This document shows, in pieces, positions 9,671 through 26,109 of a stretch of DNA of 64,000 bases. The position numbers and the translations under genes are program-made. The notes beneath the pieces are model-generated. The model worked only from the letters and a program-made list of their open reading frames with translations. It was not told where the DNA came from and did not search any database. Origin of the DNA: Chloroflexota bacterium (GTDB lineage Bacteria; Chloroflexota; Anaerolineae; Anaerolineales; UBA11579); assembly GCA_018662365.1 (NCBI GenBank), contig JABJGH010000031.1:34468-98467 (forward strand), written 5' to 3'. How positions within the stretch are numbered: position 1 is the stretch's first letter; each line of letters starts with the position of its first letter.

Positions 9671-10549
9671 ATGGAAGTTAAAAACTTTGACTGGAATTCA
9701 TTAGCGGGAAACTTTATTAAAGTCGTTTTTCTAGCGCTAATCTTATTATTTGCTTACTATACCTTTGGCTCACCGTCTTCTGGCTCTCCGGCTGCAACGG
9801 GTCAGGAAATCTTTGATGCGCAATGCCAATCTTGCCATACCATCGGAGGGGGGAATACAGTCGGTCCAGATCTTCAAGGGGTATTGGTGCGAAGAGATCG
9901 AGATTGGGTTGCACGGTTCATAGCCTCGCCAGATTTTGTAATCGCTGAGGGAGACCCGATAGCGATGGAATTATTAGAAGAATTCAATGGCATTGAAATG
10001 CCTAATCGAGCTTTAACCGATGAAGATGTCGAATTTGTTTTAGTATTCCTTGAAGTGCAGGACAGTCTCACCCAAGCGGCAGAAGATTTACCAACTGGAA
10101 ACGCAGCGGTAGGTGAGAAATTATTTACTGGTGCAAAAATGTTAGAGGGTAGAGGAACTCCCTGCATGGCCTGTCATACTGTGGGCAGTGTGGGTCAATT
10201 CGGTGGGGGAAATTTTGGTCCTGATCTCACACATGTTTATGGACGATATGGGGAAGCGGGATTGACAAGTGCGATGCAGAACATTTCATTCCCCACAATG
10301 AAAAACGTTTATTTAGGGAAAGCACTCACTGCCCAAGAGGCAGCTGATCTGCTTTCCTTTTTCGATGAGGCTGCTATCCTTGACGGTGAAGATCTAGCTG
10401 AATCTAGCACTAACATTTTTTGGGGTGTTGGTTCTGCAGGAGCCTTATTCCTCTTCATCATCATGGCGTTTTATTGGCCACGACAAAGTAAAAATCAGAC
10501 AGAAAGATTAAGAAACAAGGCAGATGCTGATTCAAGGAGAAATTCATGA
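9671..10549 (+). CDS. narC: Membrane-anchored diheme cytochrome c (NarC-like)
   Basis: CQSCH...GPDL and CMACH...GPDL domains, N- and C-terminal TM helices. The stop overlaps the narG start. Confidence 0.8.
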
Positions 10550-13500
10550 AAAAATGGGCCCTAGAAAAAACATCTTCAACTGAACGCAAGTGGGAGGAGT
10601 TTTACCGAAATCGTCATCAACATGACCGACGCATTCGCACCACTCATGGGGTGAACTGCACCGGTAGTTGTTCTTGGGAAGTGTTTGTAAAAGATGGCAT
10701 TGTTACTTGGGAAATGCAGGCCACCGATTATCCTCAACTAGAAGAAGGATTGCCCCCCTATGAACCCCGCGGATGCCAAAGGGGAATCAGTTATTCCTGG
10801 TATCTCTATAGCCCGATTCGGGTGAAATATCCTTATGCGCGCGGCGCATTGGTTGATCTATATCGTGAAGCTAAAGCAATCTATAATGATCCAGTAGAAG
10901 CATGGAAAGCAATCATGGCTGATCCGGTCGCTCGAAAACGGTACCAAACTGCGCGAGGTAAGGGTGGTTTTCGACGAATTTCTTGGGAAGAATCTCAAGA
11001 GATCATTGCGGCTTCTATGATTTACACCACTAAGAAATATGGACCTGACCGCATCGCGGGTTTCTCACCGATTCCTGCAATGTCACAAATTAGTTATGCA
11101 GCGGGCAGCCGATTTATGAGTCTTATGGGCGGCGTGATCATGAGTTTTTATGATTGGTACTGCGATCTCCCACCTGCCAGTCCAGAAATTTGGGGTGAAC
11201 AAACAGACGTCCATGAATCAGCAGATTGGTTCAACTCACGTTTTATTGCAGTGATGGGTTCAAATCTAAACATGACCCGCACCCCAGACACGCATTTTAT
11301 TTCTGAGGTACGACATGCAGGTGGAAAATTAACTGTCTTTTCTCCTGATTTTTCTCAGGTAGCAAAATTTGCAGATTATTGGATTCCTGTTCATGCCGGG
11401 CAAGACACCGCCTTTTGGATGGCAGTCAATCATGTAATTTTGACTGAATTCTACGTCCAAAAAGAGGTGCCTTATTTTACAGATTATCTAAAAATCTACA
11501 CAGATATGCCATTCTTGGTTGAAATTGAAGGCAATAAACCAGGTAAATATCTCCGAGCAAACGCTGTAGACACCTATAAAGATGTAGAAAATGGGGATTG
11601 GAAATTATTGATCTGGGATGCGCTCAGCAAAAAAGCGAGAATGCCGAAAGGAACATTAGGATTCCGATGGGCGGATAAGGAAACGGGGAAATGGAATCTT
11701 GAACCTAAAGATGGTTTGAATGATGATGAACTAAGCCCTCAGTTGAGTTTTGCAGAGGATTACGAGGACGTCATTGAACTCGAATTTGATGATTTCTCCT
11801 CTGATACAACAAACCTACGGGGTGTTCCCGTTCGTTACATCGAAACACCAGATGGAAGAAAAGCAGTCACCACAGTCTTTGACTTAGTCATGGCCCAGTT
11901 TGGTGTGGACCGCGGATTATCTGGTGCTTACCCTGAAAATTACGAAGATGCAGACGGAGTCTATACGCCTGCTTGGCAAGAAAAATACACCGGCATCCAT
12001 GCCGATACCTGCATTAAATATGCTCGAGAATGGGCAACCAATGGTGAAATGACGAATGGTAAGAATATGGTCATCATTGGTGCCGGAGCGAACCACTGGT
12101 ATCACAATAACTTGCTTTATCGATCGGCAATTGTTGCCCTGATGCTCACTGGAAGTGTGGGTGTGAATGGCGGCGGCCTGGCTCACTATGTCGGTCAAGA
12201 AAAATTGGTTAATGTCGGGTCTTGGGCGCAAATCGCCTTTGGTCTCGATTGGGGAATGGCACCACGCCATCAAAACACCCCTTCATTCCATTATGTGCAT
12301 ACCGATCAGTGGCGTTATGAGCGTGGTTACACCGCATATGATGAATTGCCCAATAAACCGGAAAAAGACCATACTATTGACCATCAAGTTCGTGCGGTTC
12401 GACGTGGATGGCTCCCTTTCTTCCCGCAATTCAAACGTAATTCAATCGAGGTTGCTCAAGATGCAATCGATGGTGGGGCAAAAGATGATGCGGAAATTGT
12501 GGATTATGTGGTTGATCAAATTAAAGAGAACAAGATGCCACTCTCGGTTGAAGACCCTGATGCTGAGGAAAACTGGCCTAGAGTTTGGATGATCTGGCGT
12601 GGCAACGCGATCGGCACTAGTGCGAAAGGACATGAATATTTCCTCAAACATTATTTAGGAACACATAATAATGCAATTGCCGGTGAACAGGCATTGGGTC
12701 ATACCAATGAAGTGGTTTATCACAAGAATGCGCCAGAAGGCAAAATGGACTTGGTGGTCGACCTTAATTTCCGGATGGATACCTCGGCCCTCTACTCAGA
12801 TATCGTCCTGCCGGCAGCAACTTGGTATGAGAAAGATGATCTTAATACGACTGACATGCATACCTTCATTAACCCCATGCAAGCCGCAATTCCCCCTGCA
12901 TGGGAATCGAAATCTGATTGGGATATCTTCAAATCATTAGCTAAAAAAGTGAGTGAAATGTCTGAAACTCATCTCTCAGAACCTATGAAAGATGTGGTGA
13001 TGCTGCCATTGAAACATGATACCCCAGATGAAATGGCTCAGCCCCAAATAGTGGATTGGAATACGGGTGAAGTTGAACCTATTCCAGGGAAAACAATGCC
13101 CCATTTCAAAATTGTGGAACGAGATTATACAAGTATATATGAAAAATTCATCAGTCTCGGAAAGGGCGTTGAAAAGAATGGTATTGCTGCCCATGGTTTG
13201 AGAATTCCTGTGGCAGATGAGTACGATTATCTGAAACGGGTACAGCCTCGTGAGTATGGAAAACATGGTGGAGATGTAGATCAAGAGGGTGATACCTATC
13301 CTTCCCTAGAATTTGGCATACAGGTATGTGACACAATTTTGCGCTTAGATCCTGCTTCTAATGGCGAATTGGCTCATCGAGCCTTCGAAGCTGAAGAGAA
13401 GAAAACAGGACTTTCCCTAACCCATCTTGCGGCGAATAACAGAGATACGCGAATAAGTTTCTCGGATCTGATCAGTCAGCCTCGAAGAGTACTCACAACA

Positions 13501-14172
13501 CCCACTTGGTCAGGGTTAATCAACAAGGGCAGAGCTTATTCACCCTTCACGCTTAATGTAGAAGAAAAGGTGCCTTGGCGGACTTTGACCGGCCGACAAC
13601 ATTTTTATCTCGATCATGAAGGATATCTAGCCTGGGGAGAACATTTGCCAGTCTATAAGCCACGCCCAGATCATACGATGCTAGATGAGACTGAAAACAG
13701 CATGGCTGAAGCTCAGGGCAAGATGATGAATTACATCACCCCGCATGGTAAATGGAGTATCCATTCCACGTACTCAGATAATCATCGCATGATGACATTA
13801 TCTCGAGGAAACTACCCGGTCTGGCTCAATAATAAAGATGCTGACGAGATGGAAATCAAAGACAACGATTGGGTCGAGGTTTATAACGATAACGGTGTAT
13901 TCGTTCAGCGAGCAATCGTATCCGCTCGCATTCCTGCTGGCACAGTTTTTGTGTACCATGCCACGGAACGCACGATCGGGATCCCAAAATCTCCACTCCG
14001 TAAAAATAAGCGAGCGGGCATGAACAATTCATTGACCCGTGCTCGACTAAAACCAGTGTTGATGTCTGGTGGTTATGGCCAATTTACTTATGCCTTCAAC
14101 TACTGGGGACCGACCGGCGTGAATCGTGACACATTTGTCTTTGTGCGAAGAATCGATAAACCTAATTTCTAG
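10546..14172 (+). CDS. narG: Respiratory nitrate reductase alpha subunit (no Tat signal, cytoplasm-facing type)
   Basis: [55 protein letters not shown] motifs; 1208 aa. Confidence 0.97.
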
Positions 14173-14226
14173 ACCTCACCTTCATTTCACCAAGATTGAG
14201 GGTGAACGAGGGTCAAGGAGTAATTT

Positions 14227-15735
14227 ATGAACGTAAGAGCACATATGAGTATGATCTTCCATCTCGATAAATGTATTGGTTGTCATACTTGCTCGGTTGC
14301 ATGTAAAAATTTATGGACAGACCGGAAGGGTGCAGAGTACATGTGGTGGAATAATGTCGAAACCCGCCCGGGTACTGGATATCCCACCCAATGGGAGGAT
14401 CAGGAATATTTCAAGGGGGGATGGGAGAAAAAAGGAAAAGGTCTCAAGCTGAAGTTACATTCCAGGCTTCAAGGACTAGCCAATTTATTTTTCAACCATA
14501 AATTACCTGATCTAAAAGATTATTATGAACCCTTTACTTTTCGCTATCAAGATCTTTTTAATTCCCCTGAAGGAAAGGACCAGCCTACGGCCATTCCGAT
14601 CTCCATGATCAATGGAAAGCCGATAGATATTGATGGGGGTCCGAATTGGGACGATGACCTGGGTGGTTCTGGCATCTATGCAAATAACGATTTGAATATG
14701 GCAGATGTTCCAGAAGAAACTCGTCAACAGATGCAGGAACTTGAAAGACTGGTGTTCAATTATTTACCCAGAATATGTAATCACTGCCTAAATCCATCCT
14801 GCGTTGCGGCTTGCCCATCGGGTGCGATCTATAAACGGGCGGAGGATGGGGTCGTACTCGTCAATGAAAATGAATGCAAGGCATGGCGCATGTGTGTGGC
14901 TGCCTGTCCTTATAAGAAGGTTTATTACAACTGGAACACAGGGAAATCAGAAAAATGCATTTTATGTTTCCCGAGAATGGAAACAGGTCAGGCTCCAGCA
15001 TGCGCACATTCTTGTGTGGGACGCATCCGATATATGGGCGTGCTTCTTTATGACGCTGACCAGATACCAGACGCAGCCAATGTAGCTGATGAGGATTTGG
15101 TCGAAGCGCATAGAGCAATAATTCTAGACCCCTTTGACCCAGAAGTTATCGCTGGCGCAAAAGCGAATGGCATCGACGATGGGTGGATCACATCTGCCCA
15201 GCAATCTCCTGCATATAAATTCGTCAAGGAATGGAAATTGGCCTTACCGTTACACCCCGAATTCCGAACTATGGTAATGATGTATTATATTCCGCCATTA
15301 TCCCCGGTGGTAAGCGTGACAGAAAATGGCTTATACCAATTAGATATTGAAGAAAATAATCATGATTTCGAGATATTTAAAAGATTGGATGCCGCTCGGT
15401 TGCCGGTTAAATATTTAGCAAACCTTTTCTCTGCTGGAAATGAAACAGTAATGCGGGAAATCTTGAAGAAACTTCTTGCCGTTCGGGTGTATATGCGCCG
15501 AAAAACAGTAGTAGGAAAGGTAGATGAAGTTGCATTAAATGCACTCGATGAAGCAGGATTAAGTGAACATCAGGCTATTGCTATCTATAAACTGACTACT
15601 TTACCCACGATCGAAGAACGATTTGTCTTTCCTCCGTATCACAGAGAGATGGACATTGAAGCCAGTATGGACCCATTGGCCCATAAAGGCGAAGTGGGTT
15701 TGGGATTCATTCAACCCCCTAAGAGGAGTTCCTAG
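14227..15735 (+). CDS. narH: Nitrate reductase beta subunit
   Basis: DKCIGCHTCSVACK, RICNHCLNPSCVAACP, CVAACPYKK, EKCILCFPR, LPLHPEFRT. Confidence 0.97.
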   Translation: MNVRAHMSMIFHLDKCIGCHTCSVACKNLWTDRKGAEYMWWNNVETRPGTGYPTQWEDQEYFKGGWEKKGKGLKLKLHSRLQGLANLFFNHKLPDLKDYYEPFTFRYQDLFNSPEGKDQPTAIPISMINGKPIDIDGGPNWDDDLGGSGIYANNDLNMADVPEETRQQMQELERLVFNYLPRICNHCLNPSCVAACPSGAIYKRAEDGVVLVNENECKAWRMCVAACPYKKVYYNWNTGKSEKCILCFPRMETGQAPACAHSCVGRIRYMGVLLYDADQIPDAANVADEDLVEAHRAIILDPFDPEVIAGAKANGIDDGWITSAQQSPAYKFVKEWKLALPLHPEFRTMVMMYYIPPLSPVVSVTENGLYQLDIEENNHDFEIFKRLDAARLPVKYLANLFSAGNETVMREILKKLLAVRVYMRRKTVVGKVDEVALNALDEAGLSEHQAIAIYKLTTLPTIEERFVFPPYHREMDIEASMDPLAHKGEVGLGFIQPPKRSS

Positions 15736-16238
15736 TGGATACGCTATCGATGTTTGCTGAAGCTTTTCAATATCCGTACCCCGGTCAAATAGATGCTCTA
15801 CATGCGCAAACAAAAGAATTGAAAGATACACCTGCTGAGAGAGAATTATCAAAATTTGTTGAAAAAATCGTCCCTCTTTCGCTTTCGGAGCAGGAAGAAC
15901 TATTTACCCGTACTCTAGATTTAAGTCCTTTATCTGCCCCCTATGTGGGTTACCACGTTTGGGGGGAGAGTTACAAAAGAGGCGAGTTTATGGCTGCACT
16001 AAATAAGGAAATGAAAGAATTAAATGTAGACCTTGATGGCGAGCTACCGGATCATTTGCTCCCCATCTTGCGTTATCTTCATGCCACCGCTACACCCATG
16101 CCAGAATTGATGAGCGTATTGGATCAATCACTAAACTCGATGATCAAATCATTGAAAAAGGGTGAAGAGCATAACCCTTATGTTCATCTATTTGAAGCTC
16201 TTGCGTTTTCATTTGGTGCTGTGAAAATAGAAGCATAA
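15735..16238 (+). CDS. narJ: Nitrate reductase molybdenum cofactor chaperone
   Basis: EELFTRTLDL, PYVGYHVWGESYKRG, ELPDHLLPIL, NPY; lies between narH and narI. Confidence 0.9.
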   Translation: MDTLSMFAEAFQYPYPGQIDALHAQTKELKDTPAERELSKFVEKIVPLSLSEQEELFTRTLDLSPLSAPYVGYHVWGESYKRGEFMAALNKEMKELNVDLDGELPDHLLPILRYLHATATPMPELMSVLDQSLNSMIKSLKKGEEHNPYVHLFEALAFSFGAVKIEA

Positions 16239-16271
16239 AAAAATAGGAATCAAAGTTTTTGGAGTAAACCT

Positions 16272-16967
16272 ATGGACTGGAACCAATTTTTATTTGTGAT
16301 TTTCCCATATATGGCCCTGACCTTATTTGTTGTGGTCACAGTTTACCGAGCGATTTTTCGGCCCTTTACCATTTCGAGTTTGTCCTCGCAATTACTGGAA
16401 CGGAAGCAGCTCTTTTGGGGATCAATCTCCTTTCATAATGGAATATTGATCATTTTACTCGGCCACCTTTTGGCATTGCTTTTTCCTCAAAGTCTAGTGC
16501 TTTGGAATTCGGTACCTTTCAGGCTTTATTTACTTGAAGTAACCGGATTGGTTTTAGCACTTTGGAGTTTTGTGGGTGTCTTGATCCTGATCGTGAGGCG
16601 CATTTCCGTGTCAAATATTCGGGCAGTGACCCAGCCTACAGATATGGGCGTTTTATTACTTTTGATGTTATCCGTCCTATCCGGAATCATCACCGCCACT
16701 GGATACCGGTTTGGATCCACTTGGTTTACGGGAGTATTTTCCCCTTATCTATGGTCGATCTTAACCTTCGCCCCTAGACCTGAATTGGTTGCGCCATTAC
16801 CCTGGACGATCCAATTTCATGCGTTCAACTTTTTTATCTTATTAGCTATTTTTCCTTTCACAAGGTTGATCCATATTATTACCTATCCGCTGAGCTACCT
16901 CTTCCGCCCCTGGCAGATCGTGATTTGGGTGAGGGAACAGAGAAAGCAGAACGAAGGCCGGTCCTAA
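16272..16967 (+). CDS. narI: Nitrate reductase gamma subunit (cytochrome b)
   Basis: FPY, SSQLLE, FHNGIL...GH, FHAFN, FPFTRLIH motifs. Confidence 0.95.
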   Translation: MDWNQFLFVIFPYMALTLFVVVTVYRAIFRPFTISSLSSQLLERKQLFWGSISFHNGILIILLGHLLALLFPQSLVLWNSVPFRLYLLEVTGLVLALWSFVGVLILIVRRISVSNIRAVTQPTDMGVLLLLMLSVLSGIITATGYRFGSTWFTGVFSPYLWSILTFAPRPELVAPLPWTIQFHAFNFFILLAIFPFTRLIHIITYPLSYLFRPWQIVIWVREQRKQNEGRS

Positions 16968-16993: not shown

Positions 16994-18466
16994 ATGAAAG
17001 AGCAAAAAACAGCCTATACCGTATTAGCCCTAAACACCCTTGCTTTCACAGTATGTTTTGCAGCATGGATGTTAAATGGTGTTTTGGTCACATTTTTGGT
17101 AGACAATGGGGTGTTCAATTGGGATGCTGCCCAAATGGGTGTGTTGATTGGTATTCCCGTTCTGACCGGTTCGATCATGCGCCTTCCATTAGGCGTATTA
17201 ACCGATAAATATGGTGGGCGGCCAGTCTATGCAATTCTGATGCTACTTAGTGCAATTCCAATGTATTTGCTAGGACAGGCAAATTCTTATAATGAATTCT
17301 TAATCTACAGCTTGGGATTCGGTATGACCGGTGCTTCTTTTGCCGTGGGTATCGCTTTTAGTTCGGTGTGGTTTTCCAAGGAAAAACAAGGTACGGCTCT
17401 TGGAATTTTCGGTGCGGGGAATGCTGGTGCAGCCTTAACTACGATGGGTGCTCCCAGTATATTACGCAACCTAACCGATGGCGGTGCCAATATTGAAGGC
17501 TGGCGTCAATTGCCCCAAATCTATGCAATAGCTTTGGCAGTTATGGCGGTAATATTTTATATCTTTAGTACCAACAAAAAACCCGCCAGCGGGCAGCGAA
17601 AATTGATTGAGATGTTAGCCCCCTTAAAGAATGTTCGAGTCTGGCGATTTGGCCTCTATTATTTCTTAGTATTTGGTGGATTCGTGGCACTCGCACAGTG
17701 GCTAGTGCCCTATTATGTAAATGTTTATGCGATGTCGATTGTTACCGCAGGCCTGTTGACATCGATTTTCTCTCTGCCATCAGGCCTAATTCGGGCAGTG
17801 GGAGGGGTGCTGTCAGATCGAGTGGGGGCTAGGGTGGTGATGTATTGGGTGTTGGGTTCAATCGCAGTCTGCACTTTTCTTTTATTCTTCCCCAAAATGG
17901 AAATCGAATCCCCAGGTAGTGGCATTATGGCTCGGCGGGGAGGAACTGTCACCGCTGTCTCAGAGACTGAAATTCATGTTGGAAATGATGTGTATACCCT
18001 TGATCCAGTCCTAGTAAGAGATGTGGATGATACGGAATTGATCTTATTGCCAAAGGTAAATTCATGGCACGAAGCCAAAGTAAGTGTGGGCGATCAGGTT
18101 CTGAAGAAAGAACTTTTGGCGCAAGGCATCACGCATATTTATTTCCAGGCCAATGTCTGGGTCTTTACAGTGATGGTGTTTGTGATTGGTATTGCGATGG
18201 GGATTGGAAAGGCGGCAGTCTACAAATATATCCCAGAGTATTTCCCCGATGAGGTGGGCGTTGTGGGTGGGATTGTGGGTGTGGTCGGTGGTCTTGGTGG
18301 ATTTGTAAGCCCAATCATTTTTGGTAGATTGCTTAAATCTATCGGTCTGTGGACAACAACTTGGATGTTCTTTTTCCTCATCACTCTGACTTGTTTGATC
18401 TGGTTGAGTATCGTTGTTCGCAAAATTACTAAGAAAGATACGAGAATTGAAGCTTCAGCATCTTAG
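16994..18466 (+). CDS. narK: NarK1-type nitrate transporter with a soluble insertion
   Basis: MFS NNP family: TGSIMRLPLG, DKYGGR, GIFGAGNAG, FGLYYFLVFGGF, GIGKAAVYK, GGLGGF. Confidence 0.9.
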   Translation: MKEQKTAYTVLALNTLAFTVCFAAWMLNGVLVTFLVDNGVFNWDAAQMGVLIGIPVLTGSIMRLPLGVLTDKYGGRPVYAILMLLSAIPMYLLGQANSYNEFLIYSLGFGMTGASFAVGIAFSSVWFSKEKQGTALGIFGAGNAGAALTTMGAPSILRNLTDGGANIEGWRQLPQIYAIALAVMAVIFYIFSTNKKPASGQRKLIEMLAPLKNVRVWRFGLYYFLVFGGFVALAQWLVPYYVNVYAMSIVTAGLLTSIFSLPSGLIRAVGGVLSDRVGARVVMYWVLGSIAVCTFLLFFPKMEIESPGSGIMARRGGTVTAVSETEIHVGNDVYTLDPVLVRDVDDTELILLPKVNSWHEAKVSVGDQVLKKELLAQGITHIYFQANVWVFTVMVFVIGIAMGIGKAAVYKYIPEYFPDEVGVVGGIVGVVGGLGGFVSPIIFGRLLKSIGLWTTTWMFFFLITLTCLIWLSIVVRKITKKDTRIEASAS

Positions 18467-18480
18467 TACCTAAGGAGTCA

Positions 18481-20034
18481 TTGATGGATCGTACAATTGA
18501 AAAATGGGAAGTAGAAGATCAAGATTTTTGGAGTTCGACAGGGTCTAAGATCGCTTCACGGAACTTATGGATATCCATTCCAAGTTTATTGCTTGCTTTT
18601 GCAATATGGATGGCATGGAGTGTGATCACGGTCCAAATGAAAAACCTTGGTTTTCCCTTTGATACCGTCCAACTCTTTACATTATCAGCAATTGCAGGGT
18701 TATCCGGTGCGACCCTTCGCATTCCGAATTCTTTCTTAATTGCAATTGCGGGTGGAAGAAATGTGATCGCATTTACAACGGCCTTATTGCTTCTCCCTGC
18801 GATTGGTTTAGGGATCGCCTTACAGAATATTGAAACGCCCTTTGCCACATTTACCATTTTAGCGGCTCTTTCTGGCTTGGGTGGTGGAAATTTTTCCTCG
18901 TCTATGTCGAATATCAGTTTCTTTTTCCCCAAAAAGATGCAAGGCCTATCCTTAGGATTGAACGCCGGATTAGGCAATATTGGGGTCAGCGTGATGCAAT
19001 TATTGATCCCCTTTGTGGTTACCTTTGGCTTGTTCGGTGCGCTGGGTGGCGGAGGTTTGCCGCTGGTAGTGGATGCTGGAGGAAATCCGGCAGGAACAAT
19101 TGCTTTTATTCAAAATGCAGGATTGGTTTGGGTGCCTTTATTACTTCTGCTTGCAATCGCAGCATGGTTCGGCATGAACAATTTATCGAAAGCTACGCCT
19201 AAACTTGGATCCACGATGACCGCATTGGCCAAGATTTTTGGATTACTGATGATCGGAGGGGTAGGTGCTGCCGTTGGGTTATATCTTTTATTGAGTCTCG
19301 AATTAAATATGTGGTTGGTTCTGCCAATCACTATAGTATTGACAGTGCTAATGTTAAAGGCTATTCCGGGTGAGATAAAGGAAAATCTCAATACTCAATT
19401 TGTAATTTTTAAGAATAAACATAATTGGATCATGACCTATTTATATACGATGACCTTTGGGTCATTTATTGGTTATTCTGCAGCTTTTCCACTGCTTATC
19501 CGAGTGGTCTTTGGGGAACTTCCCGACGGAAGCATCAACCCCAATGCCCCTAACCCTTTTGCGTATGCCTGGTTAGGACCATTAGTAGGCTCCATTGCTC
19601 GACCCATTGGGGGATGGATCTCAGATAAATGGGGGGGCGCAAAGGTGACCCAATGGGACACAGTGGTGATGATCGCATCTGCATTGGGCGTTGCTTATTA
19701 TGTGAAAGAAGCCAGTAATTCTCCCACCCCAGAAGCATACTTTATGCCATTTCTGATTCTTTTCTTAATTCTTTTTATTACTACTGGAATTGGAAACGGT
19801 TCCACATTTCGGATGGTGCCAATCATCTTTAAGCCCTCTGAGGCTGGACCAGTATTAGGTTGGACCGCTGCAGTAGCAGCTTACGGTGCATTTATTATTC
19901 CAAGAATATTTGGTCAACAGGTAAATGCAGGCACACCAGAATTTGCCCTTTATGGTTTTGCTTTTTATTATCTGACCTGTTTGGTATTGAATTGGTATTA
20001 CTACGCAAGAAAAAATGCTGAGATCGTTTGCTAG
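18481..20034 (+). CDS. narK: NarK2-type nitrate/nitrite antiporter
   Basis: WEVEDQDFW, RNLWISIP, GGGNFSSSMSNISFFFPK, GLNAGLGN, YTMTFGSFIG, GIGNGSTFRM. Confidence 0.92.
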   Translation: MMDRTIEKWEVEDQDFWSSTGSKIASRNLWISIPSLLLAFAIWMAWSVITVQMKNLGFPFDTVQLFTLSAIAGLSGATLRIPNSFLIAIAGGRNVIAFTTALLLLPAIGLGIALQNIETPFATFTILAALSGLGGGNFSSSMSNISFFFPKKMQGLSLGLNAGLGNIGVSVMQLLIPFVVTFGLFGALGGGGLPLVVDAGGNPAGTIAFIQNAGLVWVPLLLLLAIAAWFGMNNLSKATPKLGSTMTALAKIFGLLMIGGVGAAVGLYLLLSLELNMWLVLPITIVLTVLMLKAIPGEIKENLNTQFVIFKNKHNWIMTYLYTMTFGSFIGYSAAFPLLIRVVFGELPDGSINPNAPNPFAYAWLGPLVGSIARPIGGWISDKWGGAKVTQWDTVVMIASALGVAYYVKEASNSPTPEAYFMPFLILFLILFITTGIGNGSTFRMVPIIFKPSEAGPVLGWTAAVAAYGAFIIPRIFGQQVNAGTPEFALYGFAFYYLTCLVLNWYYYARKNAEIVC

Positions 20035-20048
20035 AAAAGGATATATGT

Positions 20049-20699
20049 ATGGAGATGGATCAAAGCTTACTGAAAGGAATATTTGAAAAAGCAGCTTCTT
20101 CTCATAACAAGATTTGTCCTCGTGTTGTGCTGGGGGGGCGCATAGGATTGGCGGGTGCTGAAGTGATGGGAATGGAAGTGCCACGCCATGATAAACGCTT
20201 ATTGATCATATTGGAAACAGATGGCTGTTTTGTAAGTGGTATTGAAGCTTCCACAGGCTGTTCCGTCAATCACCGCACTTTACGTGTTGAGGATTATGGA
20301 AAAGTAGCGGGAACTTTTGTGAATGTGAAGACGGGGGTGGCTGTACGAGTCGCACCACGAAGAGGCGTTCGCGAAAGAGCTTTGAATTATGCACCCGAAG
20401 AAAAAAAACGATATTTCGCCATGCTAAAGGGATATCAAGTGATGCCATTGGACGAACTTTTGACGATCGAAGATGTTGTACTCAGCAAACCAATAAACTC
20501 GATTATTAGCCGGGCAGGGGTCCGAGTAAATTGTGAAAATTGCTCTGAAGAAATCATTAATGAACGGGAAATCCTCCAGGATGGAAAAGTTTATTGTCAA
20601 GCATGTGCAGGACCAGCCTATTATCAGACGAGTCCAAATGAACCGATTGCAACAGAACTCATAATCAATCATGGAATGTCCTCTGGATTAGGGGATTAG
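20049..20699 (+). CDS. FmdE-family protein with C-terminal C4 zinc finger
   Basis: HNKICPRVVLGGRIG, ETDGC, TGCSV; C-terminal CENC...CQAC. The ATG at 20049 is preferred over the ORF-track TTG at 20028. Confidence 0.8.
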   Translation: MEMDQSLLKGIFEKAASSHNKICPRVVLGGRIGLAGAEVMGMEVPRHDKRLLIILETDGCFVSGIEASTGCSVNHRTLRVEDYGKVAGTFVNVKTGVAVRVAPRRGVRERALNYAPEEKKRYFAMLKGYQVMPLDELLTIEDVVLSKPINSIISRAGVRVNCENCSEEIINEREILQDGKVYCQACAGPAYYQTSPNEPIATELIINHGMSSGLGD

Positions 20700-20731: not shown

Positions 20732-22798
20732 ATGGTAAATAAGCGATATCAAGTGACAATTCCTGATATTGAACATTGGCGAGCGATGGTCAAATGCCAA
20801 GCAGCATGCCCGGTGAACACTGATGCCCGAGGATATGTCACTGCTATGGCAAGGGGAGATCTGGCTCTGGGATATGAAATTGCTCATGACCCAAATCCCA
20901 TGTCAACTATTTGTGGGCGAATTTGTGGCGCACCCTGTGAGGTGGCTTGCAGGCGTGGAGACATTCATGATACACAAAAGAGTATTGCAATCCGCCCAAT
21001 TAAAAGGGTACTGACAGAAAGACATGGCCCCGAATCTGAGGATATCGTTCCAGATCGAGATCAACAATCGGGATTAATCTCTCCCGACTTACAGGTGATA
21101 CCTAAAGATGAGAATTTCTTTTCGGCAGGTGCAGGATTACAATCTACAGAATTAGATGTTCCCGGTACTGGGGCGAAAATGTCTTATTCTTCTGCAAGAT
21201 GGTCACGGAGAGAATTGAAACGATTGAGCAATCAGCCAGGACATAAAAAAGGAAAGATTGCGATTATTGGGGCCGGTCCGGCAAGCTTGTCAGTAGCCTA
21301 TGATCTTGCAATTCTTGAACACGAAGTCACAATATATGAAGCAGGTCCAAAAACGGGCGGGATGATGCGCTATGGCGTTCCTGTTTATCGTTTTGATCAA
21401 CAAGCAATGGACTTGGAAATTCAATCGATATTAGATATGGGTGTAAATATCTATTTTGATACACCCATTGGTAAAGACATCACCCTCCCAGATCTCCGCA
21501 ATGATTATGATGCCGTATTTTTAGGGATCGGATTGATGAAAGGTCGCGACCTAAATATTGAAGGCCATGATCTAGATGGCGTAATTAAGGCAGTCGATCT
21601 ATTGCTCAATTACAACTTGGGATACAAGGTTAGTTTAGGTAAAAAAGTGATCGTGATCGGGGGTGGGGATGTGGCAATGGATGCTGCAAGAACTGCCTTA
21701 CGATTGGGACAAGTAAGTGATGAACAGGCAAATGCCTTATCGGATTCAGATGCTCGAGCTGAAGAGGAATCGGAGACTGTGAGCACAGCCCTGGATGTAG
21801 CCCGCACCGCATTGCGTATGGGTGTTGCCGATGTGCAAATGATCGCATTGGAAGATTGGGATGAATTGCCCGCGTCAGATTTTGAAATTGAAGAAGCCTT
21901 AGAAGAAGGAATAAAACTATTTCCTCGGGTTGGTCCTAATAAAGTCGTTGGAAGAGATGGAAAGGTCACCGGTTTAGAGGTCATTCAGGTGACATCTGTA
22001 TTTGACGAAGAAGGACGGTTTAGTCCAAAATTTACACCAAAAACTGAGCGAATTATAGATTGTGATACCGTGATCTTGGCGATTGGCCAGCAAGCTGATC
22101 TGAATGTCTTGGGTGGAGCGGACGATGTAATCATCTCTCCCCGTGGTTTGGTAGATGTCAATCCTGAGACGGGAGGGACTTCTGCGCCAGACGTATTTGC
22201 AGGGGGAGATGTGGCCTACGGACCTCGGTTGATCATTGATGCAGTCAAGCATGGACATTTGGCAGCTTTGGGTATGGATGAATATATCCAAGAACAGCAA
22301 TTAACCGTCGATATAAATACCGAATGGACCGAATTGCCAAATCACGTCATGTTTGAAAATTGGACAGAACAACAACGAATTAAACCTCCGGTTTTGCCAA
22401 TTGATCGCAGAACGGGTATATCTGTCGTGGATCTGGGGTATACAGTGGAAGAGGCGAAGGAACAAGCACAACGTTGTTTGGAATGCAGTGTAAACACCGT
22501 TTTTAATGGCAAATTATGCATCCTTTGTAACGGATGTGTCGATGTCTGCCCTTGGGATTGCCTGAAGATTGTTTCCCTTGCAGAAATAGAGGGCAGTGAC
22601 ACACTCGATCAGGTTGTAAATGTACATACCGGAGTTTCTTTGGAAGCAATTCAAAAGGGTCAAAAGGTTGGCATGGCGGCAATGTTAAAAGGTGATGCAG
22701 CTTGCACACGATGTGCCCTTTGTGCGGATCGCTGCCCCACCGATGCGATTACTATGGAAGCCTTCCGATTTGAAGAAACTCTGACTTATGAGAAATAA
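20732..22798 (+). CDS. NfnB/GltD-like FAD/NAD(P)-binding Fe-S oxidoreductase with C-terminal 2x[4Fe-4S] domain
   Basis: CQAACP...CGRICGAPCEVAC, IIGAGPA, VIGGGDVAMD, VFAGGD, RCLEC, CILCNGCVDVCP, CTRCALCADRCP. Confidence 0.88.
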   Translation: MVNKRYQVTIPDIEHWRAMVKCQAACPVNTDARGYVTAMARGDLALGYEIAHDPNPMSTICGRICGAPCEVACRRGDIHDTQKSIAIRPIKRVLTERHGPESEDIVPDRDQQSGLISPDLQVIPKDENFFSAGAGLQSTELDVPGTGAKMSYSSARWSRRELKRLSNQPGHKKGKIAIIGAGPASLSVAYDLAILEHEVTIYEAGPKTGGMMRYGVPVYRFDQQAMDLEIQSILDMGVNIYFDTPIGKDITLPDLRNDYDAVFLGIGLMKGRDLNIEGHDLDGVIKAVDLLLNYNLGYKVSLGKKVIVIGGGDVAMDAARTALRLGQVSDEQANALSDSDARAEEESETVSTALDVARTALRMGVADVQMIALEDWDELPASDFEIEEALEEGIKLFPRVGPNKVVGRDGKVTGLEVIQVTSVFDEEGRFSPKFTPKTERIIDCDTVILAIGQQADLNVLGGADDVIISPRGLVDVNPETGGTSAPDVFAGGDVAYGPRLIIDAVKHGHLAALGMDEYIQEQQLTVDINTEWTELPNHVMFENWTEQQRIKPPVLPIDRRTGISVVDLGYTVEEAKEQAQRCLECSVNTVFNGKLCILCNGCVDVCPWDCLKIVSLAEIEGSDTLDQVVNVHTGVSLEAIQKGQKVGMAAMLKGDAACTRCALCADRCPTDAITMEAFRFEETLTYEK

Positions 22799-22816
22799 AA
22801 GAGAGGAAAAAAAGAT

Positions 22817-23569
22817 ATGCTGAGAAATAATCCCCTTGTGCAAAAGCTTGTCAATTCAAGTGTATGGAAATCTATTTTCCGTCATGGCTGGCCAGATAAT
22901 CCTTTGGATCGTTCCTTGATCATGACACAAAATGTATTCTTGCATTTGCACTCAGTGAAGGTAAGTAAGAAGAGTTTAAAAGCTACATATTCCTTTGGTT
23001 TAGGCTTGCTCACAACCTTTTCATTTTTAGAACTAACCCTCACAGGTATTCTGTTGATGTTCTATTATGTGCCTTCAGTGGAAAGGGCCTTTGTGGACAT
23101 TGTTGAACTTCAAACAACGGTACCATTTGGGCAACTTTTGAGAAATATGCACAGATGGGGCGCTCATTTGATGGTGATCGCGGCAGTGCTTCATATGGTG
23201 CGTGTCTTTTTTACCGGCGCATATAAAAAGCCAAGAGAATTTAATTGGATCGTAGGGGTGATCTTACTATTACTGACATTAGGGGCAAGTTTTACCGGCT
23301 ATTTATTACCCTGGGATCAACTTTCATTCTGGGCGATTACCGTAGGCACCTCAATTGCGGGTTACGCACCAGTCATTGGCCCCCCTATGCAGAAAATATT
23401 ATTAGGGGGTGCGGAAGTGGGACAAGAATCTTTAGTGAGGTTCTATGCATTACACGTCATGGTCATCCCCACATTTCTCCTATTATTGATTTCCATACAT
23501 TTATGGAGAGTGAGGAAAGATGGTGGGATGGCCGCATCAGAAATTAGTGATGAGAATGAGGCAGCATAA
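22817..23569 (+). CDS. qcrB: Cytochrome b, N-terminal (b6-like) subunit of a Rieske/cytb complex
   Basis: LRNMHRWGAH, HMVRVFFTGAYKKPREFNW, FTGYLLPWDQ, RFYALHV, IHLW. Confidence 0.9.
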   Translation: MLRNNPLVQKLVNSSVWKSIFRHGWPDNPLDRSLIMTQNVFLHLHSVKVSKKSLKATYSFGLGLLTTFSFLELTLTGILLMFYYVPSVERAFVDIVELQTTVPFGQLLRNMHRWGAHLMVIAAVLHMVRVFFTGAYKKPREFNWIVGVILLLLTLGASFTGYLLPWDQLSFWAITVGTSIAGYAPVIGPPMQKILLGGAEVGQESLVRFYALHVMVIPTFLLLLISIHLWRVRKDGGMAASEISDENEAA

Positions 23570-24351
23570 TGACAGAAGAAAAAGATAAAGACGAAAAAGA
23601 AGCTTTTGAAAAATCCTCCGGAAAAACGTATAGCCTAGTTGAGATGGTCAAAGCCCCGCTTACGATGGTCGACAAGGGACCAGACGATAGTATTTTCTCA
23701 TTTCCAATTGTAGCTATTTGGGAAGCGATCCTATTCTTAGGAATGATGGTTTTCTTGATCGGTTTTTCGTTGATCAAGGATGCACCTCTAGAAGAATTGG
23801 CAAACCCACTAATAACTACTGACCCGGCAAAAGCTCCTTGGTATTTTATGGGCTTGCAAGAATTGTTGGAGCATATGCATCCCTTCTTTGCGGGTGTAGC
23901 TCTCCCTGGAGCCCTGGTTGTTTTCTTGTTACTGATCCCTTATCTGGACCAAAGCAAGGCGGGCATTGGGAGATGGTTCACTTCTGAGCGAGGAAAATTG
24001 ATCACGAAATGGAGCTCAATCTATGCCATGATTGTTTTTCCTGCATTTGCCGTTATAGACTATTTCTTTCCTCCTAGAGAAATCTTCAGGGATGTATTTC
24101 CTTCCTGGGTGACTCAATCTCTAATTCCGGTGACGATTCTCGTTGTCTTGGCATTTCTCCCAGTATTTTATGTATGGAAAAAAGGGGAAGGGAAAGCCAC
24201 CGCGAGGGAATTAATCATAGCACTCTTTACAGTGATGATCGTCGCAGGATTTGCCCTAACAATAATTGGGTTCTTCTTCCGTGGCCCAGGCTTTGAGATG
24301 TTTTGGCCATGGGACATGCCGGCGGGATATAGTCCCTTAGATAATTTATAA
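23569..24351 (+). CDS. Cytochrome b C-terminal (subunit IV-like) subunit
   Basis: APLEELANP...DPAKAPWYFMGLQELL, IPYLD; translationally coupled to the cytochrome b gene. Confidence 0.85.
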   Translation: MTEEKDKDEKEAFEKSSGKTYSLVEMVKAPLTMVDKGPDDSIFSFPIVAIWEAILFLGMMVFLIGFSLIKDAPLEELANPLITTDPAKAPWYFMGLQELLEHMHPFFAGVALPGALVVFLLLIPYLDQSKAGIGRWFTSERGKLITKWSSIYAMIVFPAFAVIDYFFPPREIFRDVFPSWVTQSLIPVTILVVLAFLPVFYVWKKGEGKATARELIIALFTVMIVAGFALTIIGFFFRGPGFEMFWPWDMPAGYSPLDNL

Positions 24352-24376
24352 AAAATGGTGATCGAGGAGAATTCGT

Positions 24377-24868
24377 ATGACCGAAAATCAAAATAAAACA
24401 AAGCTCAGTCGCCATCAATTTCTTGGAATCGCATGGTTTGGTGCCTTAGCAACCCTGGTGGGAGAATTTTTTGCCGGACTTCTCGTTTTTATTCAACCCA
24501 ATCTAGAAGGTGGATTTGGCGGAATTGTTCGTGCCGGAAAGGTGGAAGAATTTTTGCCTGGATCGGTGAATCTAGTCCAAGCGGGAAGATTTTACTTAGT
24601 GAGAAATGGAGAAGGTGGCTTTATTGCGTATTGGCAGCGATGTACCCATTTAGGATGCTCAGTACCCTATGAAGAGGAACAAGCAGCTTTCCGCTGCCCT
24701 TGCCATGGGTCGGTATTTGATGAACATACCGGTGAAGTTACAGGAGGACCAGCCCCACGCCCCATGGATATTTTTCCAATTGAGATTACGGATGGAGAGG
24801 TATTTGTGGATACTGGTAACCCGCAAGAAAGAAGCGCTTTTTCTGATGATCAGATCGCTTACGGATAG
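24377..24868 (+). CDS. qcrA: Rieske 2Fe-2S protein
   Basis: CTHLGC and CPCHGS boxes, GPAPRP, N-terminal anchor LSRHQFL. Confidence 0.95.
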   Translation: MTENQNKTKLSRHQFLGIAWFGALATLVGEFFAGLLVFIQPNLEGGFGGIVRAGKVEEFLPGSVNLVQAGRFYLVRNGEGGFIAYWQRCTHLGCSVPYEEEQAAFRCPCHGSVFDEHTGEVTGGPAPRPMDIFPIEITDGEVFVDTGNPQERSAFSDDQIAYG

Positions 24869-24877
24869 GAGCAAAAT

Positions 24878-26023
24878 ATGCAAAAGGAAAATTACGAGAA
24901 ATATATTATTGCAGGCCTGATCCTTACCGTAATTCTATTGGCAAGCTTTAGTATTGCCTGGATCAAAGAACCCGCCCGAATGGAGCATCTCAGCGAAGAA
25001 ATCTTTAAAGAGAGTGCCCTGCGGGGGAGAGAAATTTATGGAGAGCAATGTGCATTTTGTCATGGTTCGACCGGACAGGGTGGAGTGGGCCCCGCATTAA
25101 ATAGTAAAAATTTCTTAGAGACTGCAAGCGACCAGATATTATTTGAGACTGTGAGTGCTGGCCGTCCAGGAACGATCATGCCTTCATGGGCACAAAAAAA
25201 TGGCGGTCCATTAACGGATGAAGGTATCCGTGATCTGGTCAGTTTCATGCGTTTTTGGGAAGAAAATGCCCCAGAAGTCGCTGGGGAAGATTTTATCCCT
25301 GATGCAGTAAGAGGATTAACCCTATTTAATAGTTCCTGCTTTATTTGTCATGGTGAAAATGGCCTAGGCGGTTCTATTGCGCCAGCAATAAATAACCCGA
25401 GCCGATTAACCAGCTTAGACAATGACTGGTATCGCGGTGTGATTTCCTTCGGTCGTCCCTCAAAGGGTATGCCCACTTGGGGCACGGTTCTCGCACCAAA
25501 TCAGATTGAAGACCTACTTGCTCTAATTGATGCGTGGCGAAATGGTGAAGCGATTGAATCAAATATTTCTGTCTCTGCAATGATCAATTCAGCAATATTT
25601 GAATTGAGTCAAGGTGAGATTGAAGACACGATGTTTTTCCTAGACAGAGCTGAAAAAGGCGCGTTTGGTCCGATAGTGGAAGAATTTGAAACGGTCCGTT
25701 CCCTGTTAGATGAGAATGATGTGGATGAAGCATTCGACCAACTCGTTCGATTGAGTGCGGATTGGCCAATTGGCGTTGCAGAAGAAGGTGAAGATGTCTA
25801 TGCAGATACCTGTAGTGTCTGCCATGGTTCAGAGGGAGAAGGCAATGAAGGATCACGTCTAAACCCCAACGATTTTGTAAACTCCAGTAGTAATTCAGAA
25901 TTATTGGCCTTTATACTATCTGGTCGTGATGGTACCGCAATGGGAGGGTTTCAAGACCGATTAACGGAAGAACAGATCGCTCATGTGATTGCATTTATCA
26001 GGGAGTGGCAAGATGGAGAATAA
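24878..26023 (+). CDS. Membrane-anchored triheme cytochrome c
   Basis: CAFCH, CFICH and CSVCH class I domains, each with a downstream Met (MP/MG); N-terminal TM. Confidence 0.9.
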   Translation: MQKENYEKYIIAGLILTVILLASFSIAWIKEPARMEHLSEEIFKESALRGREIYGEQCAFCHGSTGQGGVGPALNSKNFLETASDQILFETVSAGRPGTIMPSWAQKNGGPLTDEGIRDLVSFMRFWEENAPEVAGEDFIPDAVRGLTLFNSSCFICHGENGLGGSIAPAINNPSRLTSLDNDWYRGVISFGRPSKGMPTWGTVLAPNQIEDLLALIDAWRNGEAIESNISVSAMINSAIFELSQGEIEDTMFFLDRAEKGAFGPIVEEFETVRSLLDENDVDEAFDQLVRLSADWPIGVAEEGEDVYADTCSVCHGSEGEGNEGSRLNPNDFVNSSSNSELLAFILSGRDGTAMGGFQDRLTEEQIAHVIAFIREWQDGE

Positions 26024-26073
26024 GGTAATTTCAAATATGGATTCTTTCCACCCTGAAAATTAGTCAGAATTTC

Positions 26074-26109
26074 AAAAGATTACCCTTTCTACAAAGGGTA
26101 ATCTTTTTT
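26074..26109 (+). terminator. Intrinsic terminator closing the nar-bc run
   Basis: AAAAGATTACCCTTT-CTAC-AAAGGGTAATCTTTT perfect stem plus T tract. Confidence 0.88.

Follow-up and report, generated by a model that had tools for sequence, protein, structure and literature searches.

We analysed a stretch of 64,000 nucleotides (nt) from a Chloroflexota bacterium (Chloroflexota; Anaerolineae; Anaerolineales; UBA11579; assembly GCA_018662365.1, contig JABJGH010000031.1, positions 34,468-98,467 of the forward strand), hereafter the window, in which five genes, all on the + strand and spanning 20732-26023, stand 3' of a respiratory nitrate reductase (nar) operon and encode an Fe-S flavoprotein, a b6-type cytochrome b, a subunit IV-like protein, a Rieske protein and a triheme cytochrome c. 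These five products probably assemble into a single complex in the membrane, a quinol oxidase of the b6-type Rieske/cytochrome b kind with an NfnB/GltD-type flavoprotein at its cytoplasmic face, which we regard as the Chloroflexota version of the R/b-2 and R/b-3 complexes of anaerobic ammonium-oxidizing (anammox) bacteria, added to the 3' side of the nar operon. We read the module as a portable unit for electron transfer from quinol to cytochrome c, linked to NAD(H), that would have been recruited to nitrate respiration in this genome.

Homology with the anammox Rieske/cytochrome b complexes

The original prediction drew a parallel between the module and the anammox operons that combine Rieske and cytochrome b genes with an NAD(P) oxidoreductase subunit, and this parallel proved to be one of true homology. 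Anammox loci were retrieved using the sequence fragment of PDB entry 9rk4, and alignments comprised the window, 31-34 Chloroflexota orthologues and 13 anammox sequences; the anammox complexes are named after Kartal 2013, de Almeida 2016 and Hauser 2025 (PMC12954380). A Kuenenia locus of the Kuste4569-4574 type (L038) has the gene order Rieske, flavoprotein (581 aa), cytochrome b (256 aa), subunit IV (240 aa), six-heme cytochrome c and HAO-like protein. The window contains homologues of the four core subunits found in both R/b-3 (Kuste4569-4574) and R/b-2 (Kustd1480-1485), namely the flavoprotein, the b6-type cytochrome b, a subunit IV with five transmembrane (TM) helices, and the Rieske protein. 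Identity to the anammox proteins is 47-52% for cytochrome b, about 44% for subunit IV (N-terminal half), 31-36% for the Rieske protein and 29-39% for the flavoprotein over its full length (E = 1e-70 to 1e-119), and signature motifs are held in common. The adjacency of flavoprotein, cytochrome b and subunit IV genes is likewise common to the window and the anammox loci; the flavoprotein gene directly adjoins that of cytochrome b (18-nt gap), an arrangement kept in 33 of 34 Chloroflexota loci.

The identities first assigned to these genes (Fe-S flavoprotein, split cytochrome b, Rieske and triheme c) agree with their domain matches and motifs. The cytochrome b matches plant and cyanobacterial b6 proteins with E = 1e-44 to 1e-48 (spinach b6, 7.6e-48), has four predicted TM helices, and keeps the ligands of hemes bL and bH at positions equivalent to b6 His86, His100, His187 and His202. 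In subunit IV, a variant Qo motif, APWY, aligns opposite PEWY of the b6f subunit IV, and the surrounding string PAKAPWYF is the same in the window and the anammox homologues. The Rieske protein carries the cluster boxes CTHLGC and CPCHGS-x-F, with CTHLGC and CPCHGS kept in all orthologues, and both the window and the anammox complexes have a Rieske protein with the Ser that hydrogen-bonds to the cluster; its best PDB match is 9rk4 (3.6e-16), an entry that shows 95% sequence identity to the Rieske gene of one Kuenenia locus. All three hemes of the cytochrome c are found in 25/25 orthologues, and this protein would serve as the high-potential outlet of the complex. Within the flavoprotein, 16 Cys are common to the window and anammox homologues (22, 26, 61, 65, 69, 73, 582, 585, 596, 599, 602, 606, 658, 661, 664 and 668). 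ExtP and ExtQ of the Geobacter ExtOPQ proteins were considered as a family name and set aside: subunit IV matches ExtQ, and cytochrome b scores 277 bits on the NCBIfam model for ExtP, below its equivalog cut-off of 290, but the Geobacter Ext cluster (extHIJKLMNOPQS) has multiheme cytochromes and a porin and, unlike the window module, no flavoprotein (PMC5877670).

A further shared feature is the N-terminal cytochrome b sequence FRHG...N[VI][FW]xHLH, which includes His43 at an identical position in Chloroflexota and anammox proteins. In Kuste4571, His43 is the proposed ligand of an additional heme b at the dimer interface, a bridge to the flavoprotein (Hauser et al. 2025, PMC12954380); by analogy, an extra heme is possibly held by His43 of the window protein. 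The HLH-type motif is absent from the long cytochromes b, lacking a flavoprotein, in loci L107-L117. As a strict marker of flavoprotein-linked cytochromes b, however, the motif holds only in part, in that three anammox-type loci (L070, L092 and L099) keep it without an adjacent flavoprotein gene, and in the second cytochrome b of the window's own genome one His is retained at the site corresponding to His43. Those three loci encode Rieske, cytochrome b and subunit IV proteins with the full FRHG...HLH and CxGG sequences, and no flavoprotein gene lies between Rieske and cytochrome b; they may represent a third type of complex or have a flavoprotein encoded elsewhere.

The flavoprotein has the same N-terminal Fe-S, FAD and nicotinamide (GGGxxAMDxART) domains as NfnB, the A subunits of NfnABC and StnABC, GltD, and the N-terminal modules of DPD. 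Its sequence matches in the PDB are the NfnABC/StnABC A subunits, NfnB and GltD, with GltD and DPD ranking behind the NfnB-like subunits, and both the FAD fingerprint (IIGAGPAS) and the nicotinamide fingerprint (IGGGDVAMDAART) are of the NfnB/GltD/DPD type. An AlphaFold2 model (mean pLDDT 66, above 80 in the FAD and nicotinamide core, with two disordered inserts) found its best Foldseek matches in 9bov_A, 8oh5_C, 9n5u_A and 5jca_L (E 1e-31 to 1e-36), and gave E 1e-30 to 1e-36 against the solved relatives NfnABC (9bov, 9n5u), StnABC (8oh5), NfnI (5jca) and NfnB (4ylf). Neither a TM helix nor a signal peptide is predicted, and the protein should therefore be cytoplasmic. Cys22, 26, 61, 65, 69 and 73 of the N-terminal Fe-S domain are invariant in the flavoprotein alignments. 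Unlike NfnABC and StnABC, the window flavoprotein is accompanied by no NfnA, StnBC or catalytic partner, its partner being a membrane cytochrome b; unlike NfnB/GltD types, it has an additional C-terminal 2x[4Fe-4S] domain, replacements of both Arg of the YRR motif, and a duplicated helix. The duplication (MDAARTALRLG ... LDVARTALRMG, joined by an acidic linker) results from an insert of ~40 aa past GGGxxAMDxARTA (window 21719-21823, residues about 330-364), modelled as disordered by AlphaFold2 and kept in all Chloroflexota orthologues. The names glutamate synthase and formate dehydrogenase beta subunit, given to this protein in some sources, were rejected, as neither GltB nor FdhA is encoded next to it and its conserved partner is instead cytochrome b.

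NfnB/GltD/DPD-type enzymes that bear the YRR motif use NADPH, and in Rossmann folds an acidic residue at the end of strand beta-2 goes with NAD, arginines with NADP. The motif follows strand beta-2 in all five templates (VYRRS, LYRRT, IYRRT, VYRRT), with V/I-YRR in NfnB, GltD, NfnABC, StnA and the Kuste4570-type proteins, whereas the window reads IALED and all Chloroflexota orthologues read ALE[DSN] at this place. Because the acidic ALED stands in place of YRR, NADH is likely to be the cofactor rather than NADPH. The earlier description as an NAD(P)H flavoprotein is thus borne out by the NfnB/GltD type and the nicotinamide fingerprint, and becomes less likely with respect to NADPH.

The homologous complexes also differ. 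A heme cN (ci) attachment site is lacking: all 13 anammox cytochromes b read WC[ML]GG, whereas the window and all 31 Chloroflexota orthologues read [FLM]GLG, so that Gly61 of the window protein aligns with b6 Cys35 of the CxGG motif and the Chloroflexota clade as a whole is without this site. The Rieske gene follows that of subunit IV in the window and stands first in the anammox locus; a class-I triheme cytochrome c takes the place of the 6-8-heme cytochromes and HAO-like partner of anammox bacteria; ALED contrasts with the NADPH-type YRR of Kuste4570; the window flavoprotein has ~100 extra residues in two disordered inserts; and the genomic partner is nar (an oxidase in relatives) instead of the anammox machinery. 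A second anammox flavoprotein type (L074, L076, L052, L080, L097 and L088) resembles that of the window in having the duplicated helix, in a shorter form, and in its non-YRR sequence, CLES.

The arrangement corresponds to subfamily G of Dibrova et al. (2013, 2017; PMC5600118), which comprises a short cytochrome b, a subunit IV and a neighbouring large, Cys-rich, NAD(P)-binding oxidoreductase; by its resemblance to the anammox complexes the window cytochrome b would fall in this subfamily, though PMC5600118 correlates short cytochromes b with CxGG and the window protein is short yet without CxGG. The same study notes the proximity of flavoprotein and cytochrome b 'in many other cases' beyond planctomycetes; its text names Ktedonobacteria, and contains neither 'Chloroflexi' nor 'Anaerolinea' and no link to nar. 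A literature search brought up no paper on the module in Anaerolineae, and none on its union with nar genes in an operon. The view that the combination is uncharacterised therefore stands for this setting, and fails for the pairing of flavoprotein and cytochrome b outside anammox bacteria, which is on record in PMC5600118.

Gene layout and the nar operon

Coordinates of the features are collected in Table 1. The nar operon is of the Thermus type, with a diheme, TM-anchored NarC encoded upstream of a NarG without a Tat signal, followed by NarH, NarJ, NarI and NarK; the narC gene overlaps narG by 4 nt. Intergenic gaps inside the module are 18, -1, 25 and 9 nt, a Shine-Dalgarno-like GGAG precedes each of its five genes, and no gap exceeds 54 nt in the 16.4 kb between the start of narC at 9671 and the cytochrome c stop at 26023. 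The original prediction had the module following narK2 with gaps of 32 bp or less; order, strand and gaps are as described, except that narK2 and the flavoprotein gene are separated by an FmdE-like gene, which ends 32 nt before the latter. Its terminator at 26074 was also recovered, as the sole intergenic terminator-like match on the + strand (others fall inside genes), in a gap of 218 nt between the cytochrome c gene and the next gene downstream; this hairpin is likely to mark the end of the transcription unit. From this layout, the module is most likely co-transcribed with narCGHJI-narK1K2-fmdE under the NarX/NarL-like pair.

Table 1. Coordinates (window numbering) and supporting evidence for features of the nar operon and the appended module
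Feature	Position	Strand	Evidence and remarks
NarX/NarQ-like sensor histidine kinase	6569..8473	+	Pfam PilJ-like sensor, HAMP, GAF, HisKA_3, HATPase; best NCBIfam matches NarQ, NarX
NarL-like LuxR-type response regulator	8470..9165	+	Response_reg and GerE; best NCBIfam match NarL, 3e-47
Receiver-like small protein, 120 aa	9273..9635	+	no Pfam match
narC, membrane-anchored diheme cytochrome c	9671..10549	+	CxxCH at residues 52 and 165; N- and C-terminal TM helices
narGHJI, cytoplasm-facing respiratory nitrate reductase	10546..16967	+	NCBIfam narG 1488 bits, narH 630, narI 114, all above cut-offs
narG	10546-14172	+	narG equivalog; without Tat signal
narK1 and narK2, nitrate/nitrite MFS transporters	16994..20034	+	NCBIfam TIGR00886 NarK family, below curated cut-off
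fmdE-like, C-terminal CxxC...CxxC zinc ribbon	20028..20699	+	PF02663, 1e-22; ATG at 20049 a possible start
NfnB/GltD-type Fe-S flavoprotein, 688 aa	20732..22798	+	Fer4_20, Pyr_redox_2 and C-terminal 2x[4Fe-4S] (Pfam, NCBIfam)
Four-helix cytochrome b6-type subunit	22817..23569	+	PF00033, 1e-46; N-terminal extension with His23, His43, His45
Subunit IV-like protein	23569..24351	+	PF00032; five predicted TM helices (b6f subunit IV: three)
Rieske [2Fe-2S] protein	24377..24868	+	PF00355; N-terminal anchor; degenerate Tat motif SRHQFL
Membrane-anchored triheme class-I cytochrome c	24878..26023	+	three Cytochrome_CBB3/Cytochrom_C domains; CxxCH at 58, 154, 312; one N-terminal TM helix
Intrinsic-terminator-like hairpin and T run	26074..26107	+	15-bp stem, 4-nt loop, tail TTATCCTT; 51 nt past cytochrome c stop

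The junction of nar and module is not an assembly artefact, because the identical flavoprotein is listed in 67 blocks of the collection and was read on at least 24 contigs: at the one place inspected the same nar-module gene order was found, and 23 others were grouped as having mostly the same neighbours. Base composition of the window revealed no clear island. Homologues of proteins flanking the region (window 3393-4868 and 27812-29395) lie on different contigs in 21 genomes of the same family, where synteny is not kept.

Several neighbouring features were also recorded. An independent assembly's gene call gives the FmdE-like protein 216 aa. FmdE-family genes are kept downstream of narK or narI in the Anaerolineae nar clusters L012, L022, L125 and L126, and the protein may be a molybdoenzyme accessory factor; because the gene also follows narI in L125 and L126, which have nar only, we assign it to nar as an accessory and not to the module. 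The 120-aa protein preceding narC weakly resembles (8e-07) another of 120 aa, encoded after a LuxR regulator upstream of the oxidase/module clusters of relatives (e.g. L014:1185-1547), and one regulator pair may control both the nar- and the oxidase-type clusters. Past the terminator, window 26242-30818 holds a corrinoid/methyl-transfer set (Pterin_bind/CdhD-like, DUF1638, RACo activase, MTHFR C-terminal-like and MTHFR), and at its other end the window opens inside a six-heme ORF (1-681).

Distribution and genomic partners of the module

The synteny survey proposed with the original prediction gave a mixed answer: the five-gene unit is strongly kept, and its link to nar is rare. A scan of one genome per species for close relatives of the flavoprotein returned 34 loci (57-74% identity), 33 of them in Chloroflexota (Anaerolineales, Ardenticatenaceae, Promineifilaceae, Caldilineales and a Limnocylindria-type 'Aquidulcis'). 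The order flavoprotein, cytochrome b, subunit IV, Rieske, cytochrome c is kept in 33/34 loci, far beyond chance. When neighbouring ORFs were clustered, the module was seen to follow a heme-copper oxidase cluster in about 15-18 of the 34; this cluster comprises SCO1, CtaA, PCuAC, CtaB, a small cupredoxin-type COX2, a 551-aa COX1, a 776-aa fusion protein and a monoheme c. The fusion protein itself (L018:6675-9005; cluster c9, in 15 loci), encoded between the oxidase genes and the module, joins a cytochrome b N-terminal domain, 2x[4Fe-4S], FlpD (MvhD-like) and a C-terminal cytochrome c.

Only three other loci have nar adjoining the module. Two of these, L012 (Ca. Desulfolinea nitratireducens) and L022, repeat the gene order of the window, fmdE included; in the third, L027, the module precedes nar, with the triheme c gene directly next to narC (~18 nt). 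The module is thus not specific to nar, oxidase-linked loci being commoner than nar-linked ones. A third partner appears in L012, L022, L002 and L029, in which the cytochrome c subunit is fused to the cytochrome cd1 nitrite reductase NirS (PF02239, 3e-129) in a protein of 783 aa. The fusion in L012 (14152-16503) consists of a membrane anchor, c-type heme domains and cd1, a complex III with built-in NirS that recalls the HAO-like partner of Kuste4569-74. The window cytochrome c has no NirS domain, and is 51% identical to the oxidase-linked type as against 32% to the NirS-fused type. In a concatenated tree rooted on anammox sequences the window branches first, then L012, L002 and L022, followed by the oxidase-linked clade (SH-aLRT 95) with L027 nested inside it, an order to be read with caution as the root lies on a long branch. 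Since L027 nests in the oxidase-linked clade, at least two separate associations with nar are indicated. As the partner of the module varies between genomes, being an oxidase in some, Nar or a fused NirS in others, we take its role to be generic and not that of a device specific to Nar.

A wider sample of 201 genomes, drawn evenly from the window's order, bears this out. The flavoprotein (threshold E <= 1e-100) was found in 15, of which seven, the window's genome included, have it at >=63% identity and the rest at 45-49%; NarG was found in 12. Both NarG and the flavoprotein are absent from 17/17 other genomes sampled from the same family. Six nar-bearing relatives of the same order have the arrangement HK-RR-narC-narGHJI(-narK), two with fmdE, and none of the six has the module. 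As these nar-only relatives lack it, the module is an add-on, and the description of it as appended to the nar operon is accurate and fits the single-operon layout. NarC-Nar needs no module and the module needs no Nar, because the window's genome alone among the 201 has both.

Electron routes, competing explanations and wider meaning

In the complex we favour, menaquinol would be oxidised at the Qo site (APWY). One electron would pass through the Rieske protein and the triheme c to an acceptor in the periplasm or at the outer face, for which NarC/Nar, an octaheme nitrite reductase and the caa3 oxidase are candidates, while the second would enter hemes bL and bH. The b hemes would be linked to NAD(H), probably NADH, through the possible His43 heme, about four Fe-S clusters and FAD. 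At the flavoprotein, electrons could flow towards NAD+ reduction, by the quinol-based bifurcation proposed for anammox bacteria, or from NADH oxidation into the b hemes or Qi site. In favour of NAD+ reduction, the window Rieske protein keeps the cluster-hydrogen-bonding Ser; Kuenenia Rieske proteins at +303 and +335 mV keep that Ser, one of them without the Tyr (PMC12954380). Against it may be set the presence of complex I and our impression, from gene content, that most hosts of the module seem to bear oxidases.

Several points weigh against the complex as described. The heme cN cysteine missing from the Chloroflexota cytochrome b lies on the proposed anammox electron path. Attachment of the flavoprotein to cytochrome b is suggested by gene order and by published anammox complexome and AlphaFold3 work; its co-migration with membrane subunits is on record for Kuenenia only, in complexome work cited in PMC12954380 and PMC5600118. 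Confidence of the AlphaFold2 model is low in the insert of the NAD(P) domain (residues 328-363) and in the Fe-S regions. NarG and the flavoprotein occur together in the window's genome alone among those sampled from the order, so any coupling to Nar would be facultative. Finally, a physiological need for the module is not obvious, because the genome (2.79 Mb, 94% complete) encodes complex I (two copies of NuoD) as well as a second, conventional set of Rieske protein, long cytochrome b and diheme c on another contig (C64:32170-36360; L035:8170-12362), in which the cytochrome b is a fused one of 570 aa and there are two cytochrome c genes.

The identity of the high-potential acceptor separates the remaining explanations, and the gene content of the genome bears on all of them. 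NirS, NirK, NrfA and NOR were not found in it, nor was a second heme-copper enzyme besides the A-type caa3 oxidase; a weak COX1 match on contig C59 is an ABC-transporter permease, and a cupredoxin on C35 is a small isolated protein. There are more than 12 multiheme cytochromes, including a 574-codon open frame with 23 CxxCH (C30:50471-52195), an Otr-like octaheme (PF11783, 7e-60) adjoining a fusion of seven-heme and cytochrome b561 domains (C3:13669-17573), and a HAO-like 8-heme protein (PF13447). Choosing NarC as the acceptor by elimination of NirS, NirK, NrfA and NOR was accordingly abandoned; the caa3 oxidase and both octahemes are other possible acceptors of cytochrome c electrons. From the corrinoid/methyl-transfer set in the window and an acetyl-CoA synthase on C64, we ascribe to the organism a C1 metabolism of the Wood-Ljungdahl type, as in anammox bacteria.

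One credible, though unlikely, explanation corresponds to the supercomplex of the original prediction, an idea that the present results support only in part: a dedicated nitrate respirasome in which electrons would pass from the triheme c through NarC, NarI and NarH to NarG, either for Q-cycle nitrate reduction (an estimated 4 versus 2 charges per 2 e-) or with nitrate as the sink that drives NAD+ reduction. The placement of nar and module genes in one apparent operon is consistent with this, as are the separately arisen abutment of triheme c and narC in L027 and the lack of NirS, NirK, NrfA and NOR in the genome; in Thermus, NarI interacts with NarC, which is a cytochrome of the periplasm (PMC7694296), and Streptomyces Nar1 depends on a bcc-aa3 supercomplex (PMC7931247). 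By a rough estimate, passing nitrate reduction through the Q cycle and back by way of NarC and NarI could raise the charge yield as above, and the route is thermodynamically allowed, with about 0.5 V between menaquinol and nitrate (estimate). Yet NarC-Nar clusters lack the module in at least six relatives, NarG and the flavoprotein do not co-occur elsewhere among the sampled genomes of the order, and NarI, itself a quinol oxidase, is present; Thermus NarC is thought to take electrons out of Nar and not to bring them in (PMC7694296), and other acceptors (caa3, octahemes) are encoded.

Nitrite reduction as the high-potential outlet is likewise unlikely but worth weighing. Here the module would feed a periplasmic HAO-like or Otr-like octaheme that reduces the nitrite made by Nar, mirroring Kuste4574 in R/b-3 and the NirS fusions of relatives. 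The fused cd1 NirS of the closest nar-linked relatives (L012 and L022, also L002 and L029) and the HAO-like octaheme encoded in anammox Kuste4569-74 argue for such an outlet, and octahemes of both kinds are encoded in the window's genome. The window cytochrome c, by contrast, is without a NirS domain and more like the oxidase-linked type; both octahemes, candidates for a role in nitrite reduction, are encoded on contigs other than that of the window, and the Otr-like gene has its own adjacent cytochrome b561/multiheme quinol dehydrogenase.

A fuller scheme of nitrate-driven quinol bifurcation we hold to be improbable as a whole. On oxidation of menaquinol, nitrate (or nitrite) reductase would receive the high-potential electron by way of Rieske protein, triheme c and NarC, and the low-potential electron would pass through the b hemes, His43 heme, four Fe-S clusters and FAD to form NADH in a Wood-Ljungdahl organism, the module being general and portable. 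Given that the earliest branches of the tree are nar- and NirS-linked modules, the ancestral Chloroflexota form in this scheme would have been linked to N-oxides, and most lineages would later have co-opted it for oxygen.

Adjacency without any mechanistic link to Nar is also quite improbable. The module would then mainly serve the caa3 oxidase under micro-oxic conditions, or be a general second complex III, having come to lie behind nar through clustering or joint acquisition. Orthologous modules are mostly oxidase-linked, the triheme c of the window is of that type and a caa3 oxidase is present; moreover, the lack of both NarG and the flavoprotein from the sampled genomes of the same family marks both as accessory in the lineage. 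Set against this, the 32-nt gap before the flavoprotein gene is too tight for a promoter or terminator, the arrangement is kept in L012 and L022, and L027 has a separate association with nar.

A reverse, nitrite-oxidising mode, with NarC-NarGHI as a cytoplasm-facing nitrite oxidoreductase (NXR) and the module moving cytochrome c electrons uphill to quinone and NAD+, is very improbable: NarC-type nar clusters do resemble the NXR of Nitrobacter (PMC7694296), and acetyl-CoA synthase (possible autotrophy) and the caa3 oxidase are encoded, but NarG scores as a respiratory NarG equivalog. NarX/NarL-type control, the many multiheme cytochromes and kinship to the nitrate-reducing Ca. Desulfolinea speak instead for an organism that reduces nitrate anaerobically, and the oxygen sensitivity of the Wood-Ljungdahl pathway also counts against this mode.

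The favoured reading, a Chloroflexota counterpart of the anammox complexes, can also be set beside other nitrate-linked systems. Thermus thermophilus (narCGHJIKT with nrcDEFN; PMC7694296) resembles the window in encoding, together with a NarC-type heterotetrameric Nar, a dedicated NADH-linked flavo-Fe-S membrane module, which is nitrate-induced and part of a 'nitrate respirasome' supercomplex that was proposed, not proven. Nrc is, however, a quinone reductase of succinate-dehydrogenase-like/NDH-2-like type without Rieske protein, cytochrome b6 or cytochrome c, whereas the window has an NfnB/GltD-like protein on a quinol-oxidising complex. The suggested pairing with Thermus thus holds for the type of nar operon, and the likeness to Nrc, set apart by its architecture, is functional analogy and not homology. 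A Rieske/cytochrome b route of electrons to a Nar-type enzyme has precedents in haloarchaeal NarB/NarC-pNar and Methanoperedens (PMC4683180) and in the Streptomyces Nar1-bcc-aa3 association (PMC7931247). The archaeal enzymes are outward-facing (pNar) and without NarI, while the Nar of the window faces the cytoplasm and is accompanied by NarI and NarK; in none of the haloarchaeal, Methanoperedens and Streptomyces systems is there an NAD(P) flavoprotein, unlike the window. What is new here is the lack of a heme cN site, the NADH-like nucleotide site, the triheme c of class I, and the sharing of an apparent operon with a Nar that faces the cytoplasm; the pairing itself is already known.

The four-subunit core is standard in many Chloroflexota, where its terminal partner may be a heme-copper oxidase, Nar or a cd1 nitrite reductase in fused form, and its function is for that reason not specific to anammox. 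To our knowledge, flavoprotein-bearing Rieske/cytochrome b complexes have been discussed almost only for anammox bacteria, and their reaction has never been measured. The Chloroflexota forms provide a natural panel of variants for the published model of the electron path, with His43 kept, heme cN lost, and the nucleotide site changed from NADPH-type to NADH-like. The nar-linked version offers a concrete and putatively nitrate-inducible context in which to ask if quinol oxidation is coupled to NAD(H). If the bifurcation reading were true, the anammox-type mechanism would be a general and portable one, a 'complex III that makes NADH'.

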